Origin: a virus
DNA: 61,053 nucleotides
IMG/VR virus record: IMGVR_UViG_3300027793_000007
Direction: 5' to 3' (one strand)
Part shown: piece after piece, positions 11,867 through 61,053 of the stretch
Layout: each line of letters starts with the position of its first letter
Numbering within the stretch: position 1 is the first letter of the stretch
The notes under the pieces: generated by a model
What the model saw: only the letters and a program-made list of their open reading frames with translations
The model's database searches: none
What the model was told of the DNA's origin: nothing
Position numbers and translations under genes: made by a program

Positions 11867-12460
11867 ATGACGGTAATGCCACAATACATCCATGAACTAG
11901 CCCTAGTACGCTCTACCATTCATCAAGCCGATGAGTTGGTAGAGTTGCTAAGCGATGAAGATACAGACCAATCTCAACTCCTTAATCAAATACATTCTAT
12001 CCTTGAACAAAACCAAGCAGGAGTAGACTTACTCATTGAGTTAAGAAACAAGCTAGAAGCAAATAGCGTATTCTACAATGAGCGAGCAGAAGCCTATCGA
12101 GAGTTCTCTACTCAAATGGCTGGTGCTTTGTCCTTCGTTAATGAGTCCATCCTTGAACTCTATGAAGTTGGCGAAATCCCTAACCGATTAGAAGGTAGTG
12201 CTGAGTCATTGTGTATTCAGAACAATCCTGTTAAAGCTCAACCACTATTTGATATTTCTGACTCTGAAGAAATGGAGCGTCTATGTGCAGAGTATCCACA
12301 CATCTTTAAGAAGAAGGTGATAGTGGAATATTCCTATGACAGTGCATACGTCAAAGCTAACCAAGATAAACCAGAAGTGCACAAGTACTTTAACTTTACT
12401 CAAGGCAAACACATAAGAGTTAGGCGCTCACAGAATCCAAAGTCTTTACCCAAAGGTTAA
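11867..12460 (+). CDS. hypothetical protein (197 aa)
   Basis: Track ORF. Confidence 0.6.
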   Translation: MTVMPQYIHELALVRSTIHQADELVELLSDEDTDQSQLLNQIHSILEQNQAGVDLLIELRNKLEANSVFYNERAEAYREFSTQMAGALSFVNESILELYEVGEIPNRLEGSAESLCIQNNPVKAQPLFDISDSEEMERLCAEYPHIFKKKVIVEYSYDSAYVKANQDKPEVHKYFNFTQGKHIRVRRSQNPKSLPKG

Positions 12461-12649: not shown

Positions 12650-12689
12650 CTCTGCCTAAAGGCTAACCTTCTAGCGCTCTCCCCTCAAG

Positions 12690-12711
12690 GACGCTACGCT
12701 ACTAGGGGAAG
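12690..12711 (+). promoter_or_regulatory. phage promoter-like motif, copy 12, facing ORF-free sequence
   Basis: gacgctacgctactaggggaag, with left arm tcccct upstream. No ORF lies downstream before copy 13. Confidence 0.5.
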
Positions 12712-12918
12712 AAGATAGGATTGCCTTACTCAACTCCTAGTTTCTTCGCAAAGGGTTGAAAGGTTGGGTAAGCCTCTATGAGGACAACTTAGTCAGCCTA
12801 CTCCTTTGCTCTCCGTCTCACACCACATCCTTATCCTCTAATGTATAGTCCTCATAACGAGTGTGCCGTCAATGCCCCACAAGCGCATCTACTTAACAGT
12901 AGTTCGATAAGAGTCATG

Positions 12919-12938
12919 GCTACTACGTTAGGGGATAG
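12919..12938 (+). promoter_or_regulatory. phage promoter-like motif, copy 13 (variant), abutting a CRISPR-type repeat
   Basis: gctactacgttaggggatag is followed immediately by the repeat at 12939. Confidence 0.5.
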
Positions 12939-12976
12939 GGATTCAAAGCCTCTAAAACCCTTTTAGGGATTGAAAC
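12939..12976 (+). CRISPR. solitary CRISPR-type repeat unit (38 nt)
   Basis: ggattcaaagcctctaaaacccttttagggattgaaac. Identical over 41 nt to 16190-16230. Ends in the ATTGAAAC 5'-handle sequence typical of Cas6-type crRNAs. No second repeat occurs downstream. Confidence 0.6.
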
Positions 12977-13032
12977 TCAATTCAGCAGAGGACAGATTAG
13001 AGTTCTCCCTTTCTCGTAACATCATCTCCCAA

Positions 13033-13051
13033 AGCGCTACGCTAGGGAATG
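13033..13051 (+). promoter_or_regulatory. phage promoter-like motif, copy 14
   Basis: agcgctacgctagggaatg, 200 nt upstream of ATG 13252. The leader holds long inverted repeats (tcctttgcgta/tacgcaaagga; gttataca/tgtataac). Confidence 0.5.
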
Positions 13052-13251
13052 CTTAACGTTAAGCCGTGCGTCCTTTGCGTACCTCGCAGTTATCACCAGA
13101 GTCTGAGCTAGCTCGCGGCGACAGACCGTGCTATGGCGCTTGTGCTACGCAAAGGGATGCTTATAAGCCATTGTGGTGTTATACAATAGCAACGCCAATG
13201 AGTCTGGTGTATAACATCAGTTTCCAGTTCAACTAACTTAACAGTAACAGT

Positions 13252-15013: not shown

Positions 15014-15589
15014 ATGACACAATTCATTGCGCCCCCTACATCCCCTATTGCTCTATTGGTATTGTCTCTCCTCTCAACTGGTGGTCAACATCATGAGAAA
15101 GAGATTGAGAAATTTGCTCATACCAATAGAGCATCACACTTTATTTCTGTGCTTCGTAAAGATGGCTGGGAGATACAGACTATTAAGGGTAAGCAAGGTG
15201 AAGGCTCTAGTTACATGATGACTAATTCCGACCAAGCATCTAAAGTACAAGAGTCCCCTGACTTTGATATTACTAGCGCATTAGCAACTATGGAAAACCC
15301 ACCAGCCGAATTGACTAAGTTTGAAGACTATCAGTTTGCTGCTAGTAAAGTAGCTAGTCAGCTAAGCCTATTTACTCCTGCTAATTTAGAGCGTGACAAG
15401 CGCTTTGACATGACAGACCTTATCGAAGGTTGTGTTGATGTACTTCGCAAAGTTCAGATTGAAATCCTTGGTGGCAAAGCTCCTAGCATTAAAGAACTCA
15501 AAGCTCAAGGGAAACTCTCTAAAGCTCTAGTTGAAGTACTTGGTGCTATCGATATTCTTAATGGGAAAGAAAAGCCTGAATCTTTCTAA
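15014..15589 (+). CDS. hypothetical protein; possible winged-helix DNA-binding N-terminus
   Basis: Track ORF. LLSTGGQHHEKEIEKFAHTNRASHFISVLRKDGWEIQT is wHTH-like (weak). Confidence 0.6.
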   Translation: MTQFIAPPTSPIALLVLSLLSTGGQHHEKEIEKFAHTNRASHFISVLRKDGWEIQTIKGKQGEGSSYMMTNSDQASKVQESPDFDITSALATMENPPAELTKFEDYQFAASKVASQLSLFTPANLERDKRFDMTDLIEGCVDVLRKVQIEILGGKAPSIKELKAQGKLSKALVEVLGAIDILNGKEKPESF

Positions 15590-15612
15590 CCATCTAGTAC
15601 TCTATCCTCAAG

Positions 15613-15634
15613 GACGCTACGCTACTGGGGGACG
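15613..15634 (+). promoter_or_regulatory. phage promoter-like motif, copy 17
   Basis: gacgctacgctactgggggacg, with left arm ctatcctc upstream. Faces the 1.28-kb ORF-free region. Confidence 0.5.
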
Positions 15635-15666
15635 ATGCGGCACATTGTCCTGACCACTACCTCTAG

Positions 15667-15685
15667 CATCTACGCTAGGGGATAG
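15667..15685 (+). promoter_or_regulatory. phage promoter-like motif, copy 18
   Basis: catctacgctaggggatag, about 375 nt upstream of the tRNA-like element. Confidence 0.55.
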
Positions 15686-16059
15686 TGTTAGATAACCTCA
15701 ACCACTATCAAGAGTAGGTGCATATCAGCACTGTACGAGGAACTGCTCCGTTCTACTGTCACACTTGGATTTAGCAGTTGTTCATCCAAGCGCATACAGC
15801 AAGCAAGCTCTGGATTTAGCGGCGAAAGTGTAGAGGAGTCATGACCTTTGCTTAGTAGTGTTAGTCTATGTCTAACCTTGCCTCTTGATTAGTCTATCGA
15901 ACCATGCATCCGAACAGACTTTAAACAGGAAGGTATGGAGAGTTGTTGCTAAGCTCTTTAAACTGCAAGTGGCGCTATCCACATCCTAAACATGGCAACA
16001 GATGTTGAACTGTAAAGACAACTACGGCAAGCTATGGGCCGAGAAATATATTAGCGGTA

Positions 16060-16186
16060 AGATGAGTGGCGGAATTGGTAAACGCATAGGCTGGAACTTA
16101 ATATGTGGAATTAACCCCGTCCTCTGCTATGGCTGTATTGCCAGCTATCAGAGTGTTCCTTACAGGTTCAAATCCTGTCTCATCTA
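16060..16186 (+). tRNA. non-canonical tRNA-like element (127 nt) with an oversized anticodon-side domain
   Basis: 7/7 acceptor pairing agatgag/ctcatct. Leu-type D arm tg-gcggaattggtaaacgc. Canonical T arm acagg-ttcaaat-cctgt. The middle is about 40 nt too long. It holds the helix atag(g)ctgg/ccagctat and one anticodon-like hairpin ttaat-AUGUGGA-attaa (16098-16114, would read GUG). Confidence 0.5.
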
Positions 16187-16189
16187 TAA

Positions 16190-16272
16190 GGATTCAAAGC
16201 CTCTAAAACCCTTTTAGGGATTGAAACTCATCTATAAGGTCTAGGTGGATAACCCCTATTAGGGATTGAAAC
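16190..16272 (+). CRISPR. mini CRISPR-like array: full 38-nt repeat, 23-nt spacer-like segment, degenerate 22-nt repeat 3' half
   Basis: Repeat 16190-16227 is identical to 12939-12976. aacccctattagggattgaaac (16251-16272) matches the repeat's 3' end at 20/22. The array begins 3 nt after the tRNA-like 3' end. Confidence 0.6.
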
Positions 16273-16811
16273 AACAAAATGCTAGAAAACATCATACCCT
16301 TATCCACCAACGCCTCGGTAAGAATGCCCGTTATAACCTTAATAGAACCTTGCTTTCAGGGTAAAGCCATAACATGAAGCTGCCATAAGGAATGCAGTGT
16401 GCAGATTAAAATGGCGTCTACATAAGGGAGGGTATTAACACAGGATACTTAGGGAATAATCAATACCTAAGAAGTGGGTTCGTTCATGCTAAGCCTATCC
16501 GTTAGAACTTTAAAGTTGCAACTTTAAATCCCAATAGCCGATAGAGGTAGGACATGGCTATCCTGTGTAGATGATTTGTTGCTATATTGCACAATGCTGT
16601 GGGTATCCAAAGGCAGTGTAATAGAGATGGGGGAGTGCAAGTCGTCCCTGACTAGGAGCTAAGTGGGGTATCTAGCTAGCAATCAATCATCCATTCATTA
16701 CAGGGAAGTAATTAAAGTGGGAAGCAAAGGAATAGCTAATACTTTGCACTGACAACGGGTTAATAACCTAACTTAATAAGTGGTTTGCTTATATTCCCAC
16801 TGTCCATTCTA

Positions 16812-16870
16812 TGCTATAATCTATTCATTACTAATGACTCTTCGGAGTAGAGAGAACTGAATAGATTATG
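16812..16870 (+). promoter_or_regulatory. host-type extended -10 (TGcTATAAT) plus 9-bp inverted repeat and a UUCG hairpin before ATG 16868
   Basis: tgctataat at 16812-16820. atctattca (16819-16827) pairs with tgaatagat (16858-16866). Inner hairpin actc-ttcg-gagt. No phage motif copy here. Confidence 0.45.
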
Positions 16871-18795: not shown

Positions 18796-19178
18796 TGGGT
18801 CAAACCCGCACGCAATTCATCCCCGATGTAACAGTTCAGTCTGACATCAAAAGATACCCTAGGTATATAGGTGAAGTGTTACCCCATCCTTTAATCCAAA
18901 ACACATTACTAGAAGTACTAGAAGTGTGGGATGGTAGTGAGGAGATATGGGGTAACTTAAATGAACCTATACCTTTCCCTTACGGTTCTGAGTCTAATCC
19001 TGCAACTAGGGACTGGAACAATCCGCCACCACGCAGAGATGAAAGTTCTAAGTACCCTATCTATAAGTGTCGTATCAATGGTGCTTATGACCAGTGGATT
19101 ATCTTTAAGTGGATATTACTTGATGAGAATATCCCTACTGACCTACTAGGTTATAGCACTGCTAGGACTGGGGGCTAG
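18795..19178 (+). CDS. hypothetical protein (127 aa)
   Basis: Track ORF with a TAATG junction. Confidence 0.55.
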   Translation: MGQTRTQFIPDVTVQSDIKRYPRYIGEVLPHPLIQNTLLEVLEVWDGSEEIWGNLNEPIPFPYGSESNPATRDWNNPPPRRDESSKYPIYKCRINGAYDQWIIFKWILLDENIPTDLLGYSTARTGG

Positions 19179-19665
19179 TCTGCAATCTAGGCTTAGATGC
19201 CTCAAACACTGAAGGAATCTTAATGCCTAGCTCAGCACGATAGAAGTACGCTTTCTTATAGTGGTAGTTCTGACGTTCAGCTAAGTAGTTGGCAATGTCA
19301 TTAGCACCACACTCTTCTGCTATAGGGAATACGCCCTTGATTAGTTCACCTAAGATATTGTGTCCACTGTAGGCTATGTGTAACATTTTCTCACCATCAT
19401 CTACCTTGGGTAGTTCCTTGATAGATGTGGATAGGGCTAGGTAGTCGCATAGTCTAGTTGGTGGTTCATAGTTGAGGGTTAGTATTTCTTCTGCGTAGGT
19501 ATCTACTGAAGCATTGACACTCTCATAGTCCTCGCCTAGGAATGGGTGTAGGTAGATGAAACCAGCACCAGTATACGTCCAGTGAAAGCCGTGTAGTTGT
19601 TGACTAAAGACAAAGGTGTTAGCTAGTAGGGTTGATAGTTGTTGAGCTAGGGGTAGTGCTGACAT
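19162..19665 (-). CDS. dps: Dps / ferritin-like DNA-protection protein
   Basis: LHGFHWTYTGAGFIYLHPFLGEDYESVNASVDTYAEEILTL matches the Dps signature HW..G..F..LH....Y......D..AE.I. Confidence 0.75.
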   Translation of the reverse strand: MSALPLAQQLSTLLANTFVFSQQLHGFHWTYTGAGFIYLHPFLGEDYESVNASVDTYAEEILTLNYEPPTRLCDYLALSTSIKELPKVDDGEKMLHIAYSGHNILGELIKGVFPIAEECGANDIANYLAERQNYHYKKAYFYRAELGIKIPSVFEASKPRLQTSPQS

Positions 19666-36180: not shown

Positions 36181-36474
36181 CTATAGTTTGCCCACAAGTT
36201 TGTTTTGAAGGAGATAACCTTCTAGTTGCCACAACTGGTTTTCAGCTTGTTCTCGCGCTACTTGTCTGCCAATCTCAATATTAAAGTTAGCAGGGTCAAC
36301 ACAAGCGCCTCTACCAAGCAGGGTAAAGCCTGAAGATAGTTTATAGGACACCACGACTTCTTTATCCCAAAACACTGCTTCTTGGGTTTCAGCAGTGTCA
36401 AGCAATTCCTTGATTTGGGTAAGAGTTACTCGGTTAGAGTTGTGACTAGAATAGTCAATATTGCAGTCTGGCAT
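36181..36474 (-). CDS. N4 gp49 / Sf6 gp66-family protein
   Basis: FTLLGRGACVDPANFNIEIGRQVAREQAENQLWQLEGYLL matches my recollection of that family's conserved core. Confidence 0.55.
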   Translation of the reverse strand: MPDCNIDYSSHNSNRVTLTQIKELLDTAETQEAVFWDKEVVVSYKLSSGFTLLGRGACVDPANFNIEIGRQVAREQAENQLWQLEGYLLQNKLVGKL

Positions 36475-57164: not shown

Positions 57165-57204
57165 TTCTGATGTTTAGTTCATATCTAGTAAGGAGATATT
57201 GGTG

Positions 57205-60054
57205 ATGAATGTAGCCAAGTACGAGTTTATTGACGGGCAGTTTAAGCGCACGATGGAAGTTCCATTGCGAATGACTCTCTTAGAGCAAGTGTGCGTCAAC
57301 TTGGGGGTTTCGCCAACCTCTATTGTCATTCTTGAGTTGGGCGGTATCGCGCCCAAAGAGCTAAGGAAGGACGGCGATAAAGGCAAGGAACTTCTTGCTC
57401 AACAGATGGAAGTCCTTGCTTCTGCAAGTCAATCTCTAGCTGACAATGGTATTACCTTGGATGGTGTGCATTACTCACTTCTCCAAGCAACTAGTGGTGC
57501 TAAGACCTCTGCTTCTATGTTGCTGTCGAGTGACATTCGTCTTATTGAATACTTTAGAGGTAATGACCAACACAAAGGTTTGATGTGTCATCCCAGCAAG
57601 TCATACGAGCAGCTAATGATGGGATACCAGCTTCCACTCACTCCCAACAAGGCTGTTGTTACAGCCAAGTTACGGGTTCTCATTGTGGATGATGAGTTTG
57701 ATAACTATCAGGTACACGCTGGTTCTATCAGCCAGTGTGTTGGCGCAAACCCTGATGGCAGCCCCAAGTGGGAGGTTATCTCGTCTTGGCAGGATGAGAC
57801 TATTCGCCATTATGATACCCGTCAGTCCGTTGCTGGTGTGGGCGACTGTCACATCAAAATCTCTCAAGGCTTGGCTAACTATCTCAGCACTAAAGTCACG
57901 GGCTTCAACAGCACGACTGGACAACCCATGACATTCCTTGACAGCGCTAATCAAGGCTGTCAATTCAGGCTAATGGTGGGTGAATGCCCTGCAATGGCTA
58001 AGGGAACATTCGTGGTAGAGCCTAGCCTTGCAGAGGATTACCACATGGTAATCCCTAAATCATGCTTTAAGTTGGGCTATCCTAACTTGTTAACTCTTGA
58101 TGGTGTATTGACTATCACGCTAGGAGCAACCATGCAGGCTGTGGATGGCAAGGCAGCATTTGGCTCTCAGTTTGCTCGCTCCATGAGTAAGTCAGTGCTG
58201 GAAGTTCGCAAACCTTACATTGCAGAACAGATGGCTCGCCTTAATACTGCTGGTTCTTCTATTCAAGAAGCGGCTAAGTTCTTCAATGCAGAAGCCAACT
58301 CTAAGGTTATCTGGTTTGAGGAGAACGAAGATGGTGAAGAAGTGGAGCAGTCCCGTGACGACTGGTTCTACAAGGCTATGCACTCCATAGCAACTAGTGA
58401 GCATCTAAGTTGGGCGCTCAAAGACCCAACCATCATTCAACGCATCCTCTCTAGCATTAGCAAGAGGAAGATGAAGTTAGCTCTAGGCATGGGCTTTGAG
58501 GGTAGAGTTCGTACTGCATTACCTGATGATACCCTTCCACTCCATGTAATCAGTGCATCTGATGCAAGAGTTCTTAAGTGGAAGGATGGGAAGTGGTTCA
58601 ACGGCAAGAAGGCACTACCACATGGTGCTGTTGGTATGGTTGAGTCTAATGGAACTCAACACATTGGCTTGTTAGTGGTTAGGGGCAAAGCGCCTATCAT
58701 GAACCATGCCGAGCAATGCTTGGGCGTTCTTGTCCATCGTCCTGATGGTATTGGATCGGGTTGCGAGTTTATGAGCCATCAATCAGCATCGGTCTGCACT
58801 ATGGACTTTGATGGTGATAGGAATAGTACTCTAGTCTGGAAGGATGAAGTTGGCTATCTCGAAGCTATCAATCACTTTGTCAAGATTCAGAGACATTGCC
58901 CAATTACTCCTGTTATCAAGGAGAAGTCCAAGGTTAATCGTGGATGGGGTGAGTTAACTCGCTTAGTCTATGAAAGCGCCTTCGAGATGGGTTGTAGTGG
59001 CATTACCTCTATGTATTGCCAAGCGACAGAAGCTAGTGGTGTTAAGGGATTCAACTCTTGGTTGGAGTCTATTGCGACATTGACTGGTGCTACTCAACTA
59101 TACCTTGACTGTCAGAAGTATGCACCTCAGAACCCTGATGAGTTGAAGTCTATCATTGATGGTGCTATGGAGTACTTTCAAGCATGGCAGACTGACCAAC
59201 GCTCTAGTGATTTAAGGTCTATGCCTTATATCCATCGTGGGCTTAACACATGGAAGATGGCTGGGTTTTGTGACAATGCTAAACCCAAGCATGATGTTGG
59301 TACTATTGCTGCTTGCATCAACTATGTCAATGGATTGCATGAAGTGCCAGCGTTGTTAGATGGTATGAAGCCTCTAACTCACCTTCGTGGTATCTGGGGT
59401 GATTACTCAGCCCATGATAAGCAAGTGGCTATCGACTTTAAGGCTTCACTTAGAGCTTTTGATGCACTATGCAAGGAAGGTGATGCTGATACTAAGAAGG
59501 TATCGGCTCTCATTGACGATGCTAGAGTGCGTTGTGAGTCATTCACCGATGCTCAGTTCAGTGCGTTCTGGGATTTGTCCTATAACAAAGACTGTCTCAT
59601 TGAGGTTGGGCAAGACAAGAAAGAGTACATTCCCACAGCTAACAAGCCTTGGATGCTGTTCACACAGCGCATTCTTGAGAACACTCCTGAGTTGTTGCTT
59701 AAGAAAGAGACTGTGTTATTTAAGCATGGTGGTAAATCCCCTCACGCTATTGATGCAGTAACTCGTACTCAACTGTTGGAGAAACTCACTAAGGAGTCTT
59801 TTAAGACAGTGTGTGAGGTATCTCCTGAGTTCGTAGTCTTCCATGAGAAGAACAAGACTCTTGAGATGTTTCCAGTCATCAGTGTCAAGCGTGGCATTGT
59901 GATTGGTTACGTTGGTACTCATGTAGTGCCAGATACCTATGAGGTCGAACTATCTGCTATCCGTAAGCAGAAGATTGACAAGCCAACTGGACTTACCTAT
60001 ATGGAAGTCTATGAGTCTGGCTTTATGATGCGTATCATCGACATTGACTTTTAA
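57205..60054 (+). CDS. single-subunit two-double-psi-beta-barrel RNA polymerase (YonO / RdRP-like)
   Basis: VVRGKAPIMNHAEQCLGVLV...MSHQSASVCTMDFDGDRNSTLVW parallels beta-prime LLNRAPTLHRLGIQAF...NADFDGDQMAVHV. QFRLMVGECPAMAKGTFVVEP parallels the Lys-bearing barrel. GVGDCHIKISQGLANYL resembles the RdRP DGxGxIS..LA motif. ATG lies 8 nt after AAGGAGA. Confidence 0.8.
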   Translation: MNVAKYEFIDGQFKRTMEVPLRMTLLEQVCVNLGVSPTSIVILELGGIAPKELRKDGDKGKELLAQQMEVLASASQSLADNGITLDGVHYSLLQATSGAKTSASMLLSSDIRLIEYFRGNDQHKGLMCHPSKSYEQLMMGYQLPLTPNKAVVTAKLRVLIVDDEFDNYQVHAGSISQCVGANPDGSPKWEVISSWQDETIRHYDTRQSVAGVGDCHIKISQGLANYLSTKVTGFNSTTGQPMTFLDSANQGCQFRLMVGECPAMAKGTFVVEPSLAEDYHMVIPKSCFKLGYPNLLTLDGVLTITLGATMQAVDGKAAFGSQFARSMSKSVLEVRKPYIAEQMARLNTAGSSIQEAAKFFNAEANSKVIWFEENEDGEEVEQSRDDWFYKAMHSIATSEHLSWALKDPTIIQRILSSISKRKMKLALGMGFEGRVRTALPDDTLPLHVISASDARVLKWKDGKWFNGKKALPHGAVGMVESNGTQHIGLLVVRGKAPIMNHAEQCLGVLVHRPDGIGSGCEFMSHQSASVCTMDFDGDRNSTLVWKDEVGYLEAINHFVKIQRHCPITPVIKEKSKVNRGWGELTRLVYESAFEMGCSGITSMYCQATEASGVKGFNSWLESIATLTGATQLYLDCQKYAPQNPDELKSIIDGAMEYFQAWQTDQRSSDLRSMPYIHRGLNTWKMAGFCDNAKPKHDVGTIAACINYVNGLHEVPALLDGMKPLTHLRGIWGDYSAHDKQVAIDFKASLRAFDALCKEGDADTKKVSALIDDARVRCESFTDAQFSAFWDLSYNKDCLIEVGQDKKEYIPTANKPWMLFTQRILENTPELLLKKETVLFKHGGKSPHAIDAVTRTQLLEKLTKESFKTVCEVSPEFVVFHEKNKTLEMFPVISVKRGIVIGYVGTHVVPDTYEVELSAIRKQKIDKPTGLTYMEVYESGFMMRIIDIDF

Positions 60055-60110: not shown

Positions 60111-60190
60111 TCTTATCTACTAGTTTGTCCCTTGATGGACTAGGCTTTGACGCTTCGCTATTTGATAATAATATTTGTTTGGAGTTAAAT

Positions 60191-60325
60191 ATGTGCTTCC
60201 AGTTTAACAGAGAACAGTGGCTCTCTGATTGTTGGGAAATGGCTAGATATCAAGACTTAATGGAGTATGAAGCTCAGGAAGTTTTGAATGGTGCTGACCC
60301 GTTAGACTTCCATAGACATTGCTAG
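60191..60325 (+). CDS. hypothetical small protein (44 aa)
   Basis: Track ORF trimmed to the ATG after GGAG. Confidence 0.4.
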   Translation: MCFQFNREQWLSDCWEMARYQDLMEYEAQEVLNGADPLDFHRHC

Positions 60326-60328
60326 ATA

Positions 60329-60377
60329 GGCTGTATAGGTTAGGGGGTTATCCTCTAGTCTATACAGCCTTTTTTTT
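60329..60377 (+). terminator. rho-independent terminator
   Basis: ggctgtatag / ctatacagcc 10-bp stem followed by T8. Confidence 0.8.
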
Positions 60378-60403
60378 GCTTTGTCCTCTACGTTCTAAGT
60401 TAG

Positions 60404-60423
60404 GACGCTACGCTAGTAAGTAA
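60404..60423 (+). promoter_or_regulatory. phage promoter-like motif, copy 34 (first of a tandem pair)
   Basis: gacgctacgctagtaagtaa, part of a duplicated ~47-bp unit tctacgtt..aag.taggacgctacgcta. Confidence 0.5.
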
Positions 60424-60451
60424 TAGCCTATCTGTCTACGTTTGAAGGTAG

Positions 60452-60471
60452 GACGCTACGCTATTAGATAA
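60452..60471 (+). promoter_or_regulatory. phage promoter-like motif, copy 35 (second of the tandem pair)
   Basis: gacgctacgctattagataa. No ORF for about 150 nt downstream. Confidence 0.55.
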
Positions 60472-60581
60472 CTCAAGGGTTTTGATGCTTTTACCTGAGT
60501 TCTATGACAAAGCATCCTAAAGTTCTCAGCGCTCACTTGAGTAGTGCTACCGTTTGTGTTAACAACATAATTATCCTTTTG

Positions 60582-60600
60582 CTGCTACGCAATGGGATAA
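60582..60600 (+). promoter_or_regulatory. phage promoter-like motif, copy 36 (variant)
   Basis: ctgctacgcaatgggataa, 28 nt upstream of ATG 60629. Confidence 0.5.
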
Positions 60601-60864: not shown

Positions 60865-61053
60865 ATGCTAACTCTTAGATATCCCTGCGACTATCGTTTT
60901 TCAAGCAATGGTGGGGACTACGCCCACTACTGCAAACAGGTAAATGAAGATTTCATCATCTTCTGGTCATCTGGCGAGTTGGCGGAAGAAAACACGATGA
61001 TTGGATACCACCGAGGTAAGCCAATAATCGTCACACGGCACGACTGCTACGGC
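60865..61053 (+). CDS. 5' part of the junction-spanning hypothetical gene (continues at 128..343)
   Basis: ATG 4 nt after GGAGA. MLTLRYPCDYRFSSNGGDYAHYCKQVNEDF... reads in frame into the track ORF 53..343. Confidence 0.6.
   Translation, partial: MLTLRYPCDYRFSSNGGDYAHYCKQVNEDFIIFWSSGELAEENTMIGYHRGKPIIVTRHDCYG
60927..61053. repeat. terminal overlap, copy B (identical to 1-127)
   Basis: See copy A. Confidence 0.9.

Follow-up and report, generated by a model that had tools for sequence, protein, structure and literature searches.

What could a single CRISPR repeat do in a phage genome, when it lies directly behind a promoter-like motif and no array surrounds it? This question was raised by a locus around position 12940 of IMG/VR virus record IMGVR_UViG_3300027793_000007, a stretch of 61,053 nucleotides that was analysed over its whole length (the window). 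Positions 1-127 of the window recur at 60927-61053, and with its ends overlapping in this way it represented the complete genome of a phage (60,926 bp), circularly closed or terminally redundant. The repeat was identical to those of arrays in freshwater metagenomes, and a second full copy and a half copy were found in the same genome. These units are, in our judgement somewhat more probably than otherwise, type I-D CRISPR repeat mimics and candidates for RNA anti-CRISPRs (Racrs) in a phage of a Pseudanabaena-like cyanobacterium.

A host repeat in the phage genome

The 38-nt string named in the original prediction was present exactly at 12939-12976 (+ strand), with no match in 100 dinucleotide-preserving shuffles. 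With bounds set by host arrays, the true unit was 37 nt long (GATTCAAAGCCTCTAAAACCCTTTTAGGGATTGAAAC, 12940-12976, + strand), a full type I-D repeat in CRISPR RNA (crRNA) sense according to array identity, which is called SRU1 here (solitary repeat unit, SRU). Its hairpin core CCCTTTTAGGG occupied 12958-12968 (+), and the last eight nucleotides (12969-12976, +) were the predicted crRNA handle, ATTGAAAC, which also closes the identical repeats of cyanobacterial arrays. The nearest Rfam family was CRISPR-DR5 (RF01318), of whose stem one U was missing in the family of the phage repeat. An 8-bp stem (CUCUAAAA/UUUUAGGG) given by RNAfold was rejected as the relevant hairpin, being absent from half repeats, which retained only the CCCU/AGGG stem, as in the DR5 model.

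SRU1 began one base past a promoter-like motif copy, CTACGTTAGGGGATAG (12923-12938, +), an atypical one of the form CTACGTTA-GGGG-ATAG, with the G run at 12931-12934 as presumed transcription start. A start in this run would place SRU1 6-9 nt into the RNA, which agrees with the predicted distance of about 8 nt. As had been described, no credible ORF (open reading frame) existed in the 60 nt 3' of SRU1, up to the next motif copy (CTACGCTAGGGAATGC, 13037-13052, +), whose upstream arm TCTCCC can pair with GGGA. The ORFs overlapping the units were all doubtful (41 aa at SRU1; 71, 33 and 35 aa at SRU2).

The absence of a second repeat, also claimed originally, held locally, with no partial repeat within 100 nt of SRU1 (best local alignment 18/37), but not genome-wide, as an identical 37-nt type I-D repeat (SRU2) was located at 16191-16227 (+). 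Counting flanks, a 45-nt unit was 98% identical between the two loci. An Rfam scan of the whole window gave no repeat copies beyond SRU1, SRU2 and one half repeat. The phage itself carried no CRISPR array, that is, no two or more regularly spaced repeats with normal-length spacers, and no cas genes were detected among the approximately 40 window ORFs scanned.

Candidate hosts were sought with the 3' 33 nt of the repeat among 185,579 species genomes. This gave 29 loci, nearly all of them from Pseudanabaena, whose arrays reached 110 repeats per 8 kb. The Pseudanabaena repeats (708) were identical to the phage copy at 36/37 positions, and G15 was the sole difference. In a scan of freshwater metagenomes, 664 repeats in 22 contigs were 37/37 identical to the phage unit, with a median spacer length of 35 nt. 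A phage-specific variant had been considered on account of the A at repeat position 15, where the approximately 950 Pseudanabaena genome repeats all had G; it was dropped because metagenome arrays also carry A at this position (915 repeats). Given this identity with real array repeats, the possibility that no array anywhere uses the repeat, which the original prediction had named as fatal to it, does not hold.

The association with cyanobacterial type III arrays, drawn in that prediction, was rejected since the genes beside the arrays were those of type I-D. The arrays followed cas6-cas4-cas1-cas2, and upstream of these lay the genes for Cas3', Cas10d (Csc3), Csc2 and Csc1; the host Cas1 (Cas1d) matched the type I-D model TIGR04093 with 432-437 bits (cut-off 385). 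The host system is thus type I-D and not type III, with the caveat that the Cas6-adaptation-array module was also found behind an unclassified effector cassette. The array repeat reads GATTC...GAAAC from cas2 toward the degenerate terminal repeat, so the phage copies are in crRNA sense.

Several further features of the host loci were observed. The identical Cas6 and cas4-cas1-cas2 module sat behind a type I-D effector cassette in locus L070, and the same repeat array adjoined this module in other host loci examined (L029, L044). In L071 the module was located behind the unclassified cassette (818, 291 and 278 aa plus a Cas3 of approximately 890 aa), and in L063 a module with a homologous Cas6 (P0003, 90% aa identity to the L044 Cas6) was also behind an unclassified cassette, of which NCBIfam recognised only Cas3. 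In the Pseudanabaena type I-D loci, csc1 and cas6 were separated by small ORFs of 140-172 aa, up to three in number and paralogous to each other (for example, on the - strand, L032 1613-3060 and L070 8510-9980), whose translations in L016, L029 and L032 shared the pattern '...STIDDPVETR.LL.D.EANLPI...' and had no family match.

A total of 1717 spacers from host arrays were compared with the window, and five shuffled windows served as control. Four host spacers matched the window with 79-91% identity and none matched the shuffled ones. Three of the four protospacers had a GTN 5' flank, which is the published type I-D protospacer adjacent motif (PAM; PMC10212523). One of them, at 608-642 (+, 32/35, flank GTC), was matched by a spacer from an array with the identical repeat; another, at 36278-36311 (-, 30/34, flank GTA), by a spacer from the array of a Lake Mendota Pseudanabaena metagenome-assembled genome; and the third lay at 685-718 (+, 27/34, flank GTT). 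The fourth (58-92, +, 30/35) was flanked by GGC, which is not a PAM, and was also matched at 30/37 by a second, 37-nt spacer (L059_+_7); it recurs at 60984 because the window ends overlap. Judged by these spacer matches, the host type I-D system targets this phage lineage.

Transcription context, second locus and relatives

The motif before SRU1 belonged to a large set. The + strand carried 43 copies of GCTACGCTA, counted with at most one mismatch, and the - strand 7; the consensus was gACGCTACGCTA-N-GGGGATA. Most + strand copies lay 12-40 nt before ATG-initiated + strand ORFs, and the motif was also present between - strand structural genes, where it preceded small + strand ORFs. Some copies contained a TAGCG-CTA-CGCTA palindrome, with flank-extended hairpins of -14 to -22 kcal/mol, and four copies were clustered within 450 nt near the genome 'start' (60153-60597).

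An ORF of 951 aa (57199-60054, +) could encode the enzyme that reads this motif. Neither it nor an ORF of 760 aa had any hit in sequence searches of Pfam, PHROG and PDB, and the 951-aa protein was recognised by structure prediction only. Foldseek searches with its AlphaFold model (predicted local distance difference test score, pLDDT, 70) returned plant RDR2 (E 1e-10) and Neurospora QDE-1 (1.5e-7), together with the gp64 RNA polymerase of Thermus phage P32 (1.4e-3) and the RNA polymerase of Thermus phage P74. F537, D538, R541 and N542 were invariant in the family of this ORF, within the consensus MDFDGDRNS, which includes the DFDGD motif of the single-subunit two-barrel type. By the structure model the phage probably has in this protein a single-subunit RNA polymerase of its own, and this candidate likely reads the motif that would drive SRU1. 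From the strand bias and positions of the motif together with the polymerase candidate, a phage-specific promoter is therefore plausible. About 40 homologues of the 951-aa protein were observed in phage contigs of up to approximately 64 kb.

At the second locus the repeat was joined to a tRNA-like gene with large insertions (16060-16186, +, Rfam tRNA 40.4 bits), whose 3' end lay 4 nt before SRU2. An insertion of 43-46 nt interrupted the anticodon region of the gene, and additional bases preceded its T arm; ARAGORN did not report it by default, and called a tRNA-Ser(GGA) with a 46-nt insertion if introns were allowed. The tRNAs that relatives held in this slot (Tyr, Met, Ser, Gln) were ordinary ones. 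SRU2 was followed by a 21-nt pseudo-spacer (16228-16248, +) and then by a half repeat, ATAACCCCTATTAGGGATTGAAAC (16249-16272, +), which corresponded to DR5 positions 14-37 with 22.6 bits and comprised the hairpin CCCTATTAGGG and the handle ATTGAAAC. The half repeat matched SRU2 at 24/37 positions overall and at 21/22 in the 3' part, and its end was followed, after 6 nt, by the ATG of a small ORF (16279-16377). In the pseudo-spacer, nucleotides 1-12 (TCATCTATAAGG, 16228-16239) exactly duplicated 16180-16191 at the 3' end of the tRNA-like gene, so that the two copies bracket SRU2, and the site at 16180-16191 was preceded by GTC, a type I-D PAM.

Neighbouring proteins and the repeat itself led to relatives, in which full or half units recurred at four different intergenic slots. 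In L064 (77% aa identity for the neighbouring 243-aa ORF) a half repeat stood in the SRU1 slot after the same deviant motif, its handle separated by no more than 14 nt from the motif that came next. L039 (92% aa) had no unit in the SRU1 slot and two ordinary tRNAs where the window has the tRNA-like gene and repeats, and carried a half repeat directly after another motif copy (homologous to window 15670). In L002 (exonuclease 90% aa) a full repeat came after the exonuclease gene. No units were found in the stretches covered by L065, L066, L067 and L068 (69-90% aa), of which only L065 spans both main slots. Among the six phage copies only AA.CC.T.TTAGGGATTGAAAC was invariant, which corresponds to the hairpin (CCCU/AGGG) together with the 8-nt handle. 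This pattern, with gains repeated in different slots, a decaying 5' half and losses from some relatives, fits an accessory element of counter-defence that would be selected at the RNA level.

Half repeats were also seen in other cyanobacterial viral contigs. In L003 (10940-11110) and L008 (1510-1680) a TTGACA-17-TAGTAT promoter was followed by a half repeat, approximately 30 nt, a second half repeat, approximately 20 nt and a terminator. In L005 (6180-6330) there were two units whose 'spacers' resembled each other, as described for Cracr arrays.

The window encoded a large terminase, a portal-like virion protein, a major head protein (capsid) and a primase-helicase. It had no DNA or protein match in INPHARED and no close relative among deposited phages, so kinship with cyanophage N-1, A-1 or any deposited phage was rejected. 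Two islands (12650-13250 and 15590-16867) contained no substantial ORF, with only doubtful ones of 30-71 aa, and held several motif copies with short non-coding cargo after each copy. This cargo varied among relatives, while the start of the unit at 12694 was kept in L039, and the islands resemble small-RNA cassettes whose cargo goes beyond the repeat units. Elsewhere, the ORF at 19162-19665 (-) aligned with genes of two relatives, L064 and L067, for whose products Pfam gives a Ferritin domain (PF00210), and is possibly an auxiliary iron-storage or Dps-like gene.

Decoy, guide and other explanations

The original prediction had offered two explanations, a repeat decoy or RNA anti-CRISPR and a phage-made guide, and the former is the best supported; the same unit in a sibling contig is itself listed as a type I-D solitary repeat (PMC10651486). 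The course that we infer for such a decoy comprises transcription, binding and cleavage by Cas6d, sequestration of Cas proteins and an effect on immunity. SRU1 would be transcribed in crRNA sense from the promoter of the phage's own RNA polymerase, so that 6-9 nt would precede it in the RNA, and SRU2 with the half repeat would be transcribed as the trailer of the tRNA-like precursor. Host Cas6d would bind the CCCU/AGGG hairpin and cut 8 nt before the end of the repeat. The 5' product would keep the hairpin and thereby retain Cas6d. The 3' product, with the authentic AUUGAAAC handle and non-targeting sequence behind it, would lead to assembly of Cas5d, Cas10d and Cas7d into useless complexes. 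Both products would compete with host crRNAs, some of them directed at the phage lineage, and interference would be lowered.

Several points weigh against this reading. Both full copies scored 31.1 bits with the DR5 model, under the Rfam gathering threshold of 40 bits, and the half copy 22.6 bits. The motif before SRU1 is deviant (CGTTA instead of CGCTA, and without the 'gacg' prefix) and its promoter activity is assumed; the CGTTA variant was kept at the homologous place in L039 and L064. The ten ORFs neighbouring the repeat units had no informative match in Pfam or PHROG, so there is no guilt by association with anti-CRISPR (acr) genes. Type I-D solitary repeats are, as a class, known from sequence only. 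The active part of RacrIF1 is a product of 70-76 nt located 5' of the Cas6 cut and carrying a Cas7 filament, and its handle is dispensable, whereas the phage unit has only 6-9 nt before the repeat and a strictly conserved handle; given this contrast, the details must differ if the unit is a decoy.

That the handle did not vary among the six phage copies, not even in those that had lost the repeat's 5' half, also suits the main rival, a crRNA-like guide or regulator of the mini-array or Cracr type, which we consider possible though rather unlikely. Handle-bearing 3' products would here load the host type I-D Cascade and direct it to a specific target, which could be a competing phage, the phage's own DNA or, by way of partial complementarity, the promoter of a host cas or toxin gene. 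The tail after the SRU1 handle (12977-13017, +) consisted of 11 nt, a weak terminator-like hairpin (12988-13007) and a T-rich run, and a Cas6 cut is predicted to leave a crRNA-sized product of the 8-nt handle plus approximately 35-40 nt. In Synechocystis the crRNAs of type I-D are 3'-trimmed to 39-45 nt (PMC10212523), and a second repeat may be unnecessary; the argument made originally, that one repeat and a trimmed guide could be enough, is therefore reasonable for type I-D, while the type III setting given for it did not stand. The full repeat, 21 nt and half repeat of the second locus resemble the short pseudo-spacers of CreA and Cracr RNAs (10.1101/2024.10.29.618823), and the half-repeat pairs of L003 and L008 and the mutually similar 'spacers' of L005 point the same way.

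Targets for such a guide were looked for in phage and host sequences. The SRU1 tail (S1) had no protospacer in IMG/VR (with a pattern tolerating every sixth base), INPHARED or PLSDB, and the proposal of a guide against competing phages found no support in these or in the host spacers and host cas loci. For S1, S2 and S3 no protospacer or PAM-plus-seed match other than a self-match was obtained in IMG/VR, INPHARED and PLSDB or among the 1717 host spacers and the Pseudanabaena cas loci, a weak negative for host targets because the region upstream of cas3' and whole host genomes lay outside the search. No GTN-flanked match of at least 10/12 occurred in host loci L016, L029, L032, L034, L036, L044, L062, L063, L070 and L071, and no Cracr-type target, with PAM and a seed of at least 10/12, was found in the host cas loci scanned. 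Weak tail matches of 10-14 nt to host spacers and loci were at chance level, and an origin of the tails from host spacers was rejected for want of a match among those sampled. The sole GTN-flanked seed match was the self-site at 16180, where the first 12 nt of the pseudo-spacer meet their GTC-flanked duplicate; this could speak for a guide, but would be explained equally well by microhomology-mediated copying of the 45-nt unit into the tRNA trailer. Against a guide is also the tail itself, which was not conserved in the same slot of L064, where the 14 nt left before the next motif are all that follows the handle.

A fuller form of this rival, in which the units would do more than passively sponge up Cas6, is rather unlikely: the conserved handle and the crRNA-sized tails would then signify that the phage loads the host type I-D Cascade with its own crRNA-like RNAs, and one unit, the precursor of tRNA-like element, repeat and half repeat transcribed by the two-barrel RNA polymerase of the phage, would be matured jointly by tRNA-processing enzymes and Cas6d. 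If true, this would be the first type I-D and the first cyanobacterial case of viral crRNA-like reprogramming.

It is very unlikely that the units are recombination substrates or relics, either functionless leftovers of exchange between phage and array or homology for integration into, or rearrangement of, a host array. The perfect 37-nt identity with host repeats would supply the homology, and the distribution among relatives is patchy. Yet the gains in four slots were independent, the hairpin and handle were selectively retained while the 5' half decayed, and two units stand right after promoter motifs, which argues for selection at the RNA level; moreover, no integrase was present among the approximately 40 window ORFs scanned, and the flanks matched none of the sampled host spacers.

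Least probable of all is that host Cas6d serves as a processing enzyme for phage transcripts and the units are cleavage punctuation that releases or stabilises downstream RNAs, such as the small ORF 6 nt past the half repeat (its first 21 nt conserved in L039) or RNAs beside the tRNA-like element, for although SRU2 lies in a tRNA processing context, the L002 unit lies within an operon without an upstream motif and greater stability is reported for the 5'-OH ends that Cas6 leaves (PMC10651486), no gene follows SRU1, the relatives L067, L065 and L066 express the same genes without a unit, the scheme would fail in hosts without the system, and it has no precedent.

Known repeat units and meaning for cyanophages

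Solitary repeat units and Racrs have been described by Faure et al. 2019 and by Camara-Wilpert et al. 2023 (Nature 623:601; PMC10651486), and in the latter study nine candidates that were tested act as Racrs and inhibit CRISPR-Cas, and a non-targeting crRNA also lowers interference. Its supplement gives TTCAAAGCCTCTAAAACCCTTTTAGGGATTGAAAC, the exact 35-nt core of the unit in our phage, typed I-D, twice in IMGVR_UViG_3300008105_000050 (12172-12206 and 15248-15282), and its published table lists both copies as solitary repeats. This contig, with copies approximately 3.1 kb apart, is evidently a sibling of our phage, and the element was therefore already catalogued; the catalogued element is undescribed beyond its listing, and its function is predicted.

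The decoy reading was compared with the rules of SRUFinder (PMC10651486), which takes intergenic sequences in a virus or plasmid with high identity to a known repeat and at least 90% coverage, provided that neither a full nor a partial second repeat lies within 100 bp; a partial repeat makes a mini-array only with at least 90% identity. SRU1 was intergenic, was 100% identical over 37 nt, lay in a phage and was isolated within 100 bp. SRU2 had the half repeat 21 nt downstream; as this pair agreed at 24/37, below the limit for a mini-array, the rules would probably just not count SRU2 as solitary, although both sibling copies stand as such in the published table. The host subtype was also in agreement, as the arrays with the identical repeat adjoin type I-D genes and carry spacers against the phage lineage. 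SRU1 had an expression context as well, with the promoter-like motif 1 nt upstream, a polymerase candidate in the genome and the terminator-like hairpin 12 nt downstream. Like a Racr, it is a single intergenic CRISPR repeat in a virus, directly past a promoter-like motif, and matches the host subtype. The differences are that the Racrs tested were of I-C, I-E, I-F and V-A and none of type I-D, that the phage promoter appears to be read by a two-barrel RNA polymerase rather than with sigma-70, and that in our phage one of the copies stands fused to a tRNA-like element, with a half repeat behind it.

Cracr and the host CreA and CreR RNAs (Liu et al., bioRxiv 10.1101/2024.10.29.618823) provide a second comparison. 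Cracrs also have partial or degenerate repeats that keep hairpin and handle, short pseudo-spacers and several units per phage. They are defined by at least nine PAM-proximal matches to the host CreA or CreR spacer, which targets cas or toxin promoters, and none was found for the phage when DNA of the host loci was scanned directly. The types reported in that study are V-A, I-F, I-E, I-C and I-B; neither I-D nor cyanobacteria appear in it.

Cyanophage N-1 (Chenard et al. 2016, mBio; PMC4916379) is likewise a cyanophage without cas genes and with host-like repeats of the DR5 family (type I-D), and its array, which is transcribed in infection, is also beside an exonuclease gene, as is the L002 unit. 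The array of N-1 is a regular one, with a leader, five 37-bp repeats and four spacers of 29-37 bp, whereas the units of our phage stand alone, apart from one pair of a full and a half repeat with 21 nt between them. The two also differ in host genus and phage lineage, and no INPHARED match connects them.

Virus-borne mini-CRISPR arrays, reportedly described by Medvedeva et al. in 2019, are said to act in interviral conflict with normal-length spacers that match related viruses. They resemble the present units as viral repeats without cas genes that rely on host Cas proteins, and differ in that no spacer match to a related or competing virus was found for S1 in IMG/VR, INPHARED and PLSDB. To our knowledge, no anti-CRISPR has been characterised for any cyanophage.

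Because the class of SRUs and Racrs and the sequence in the sibling contig were already catalogued, the gain is incremental. The finding ties repeat units to an unusual phage transcription system, and gives a clean natural test case, with an exact copy of the host repeat, host spacers against the phage, and relatives with full, half or no units at defined slots. A comparison of these relatives could show what a repeat must contain in order to disarm a type I/III hybrid system with 3'-trimmed crRNAs.

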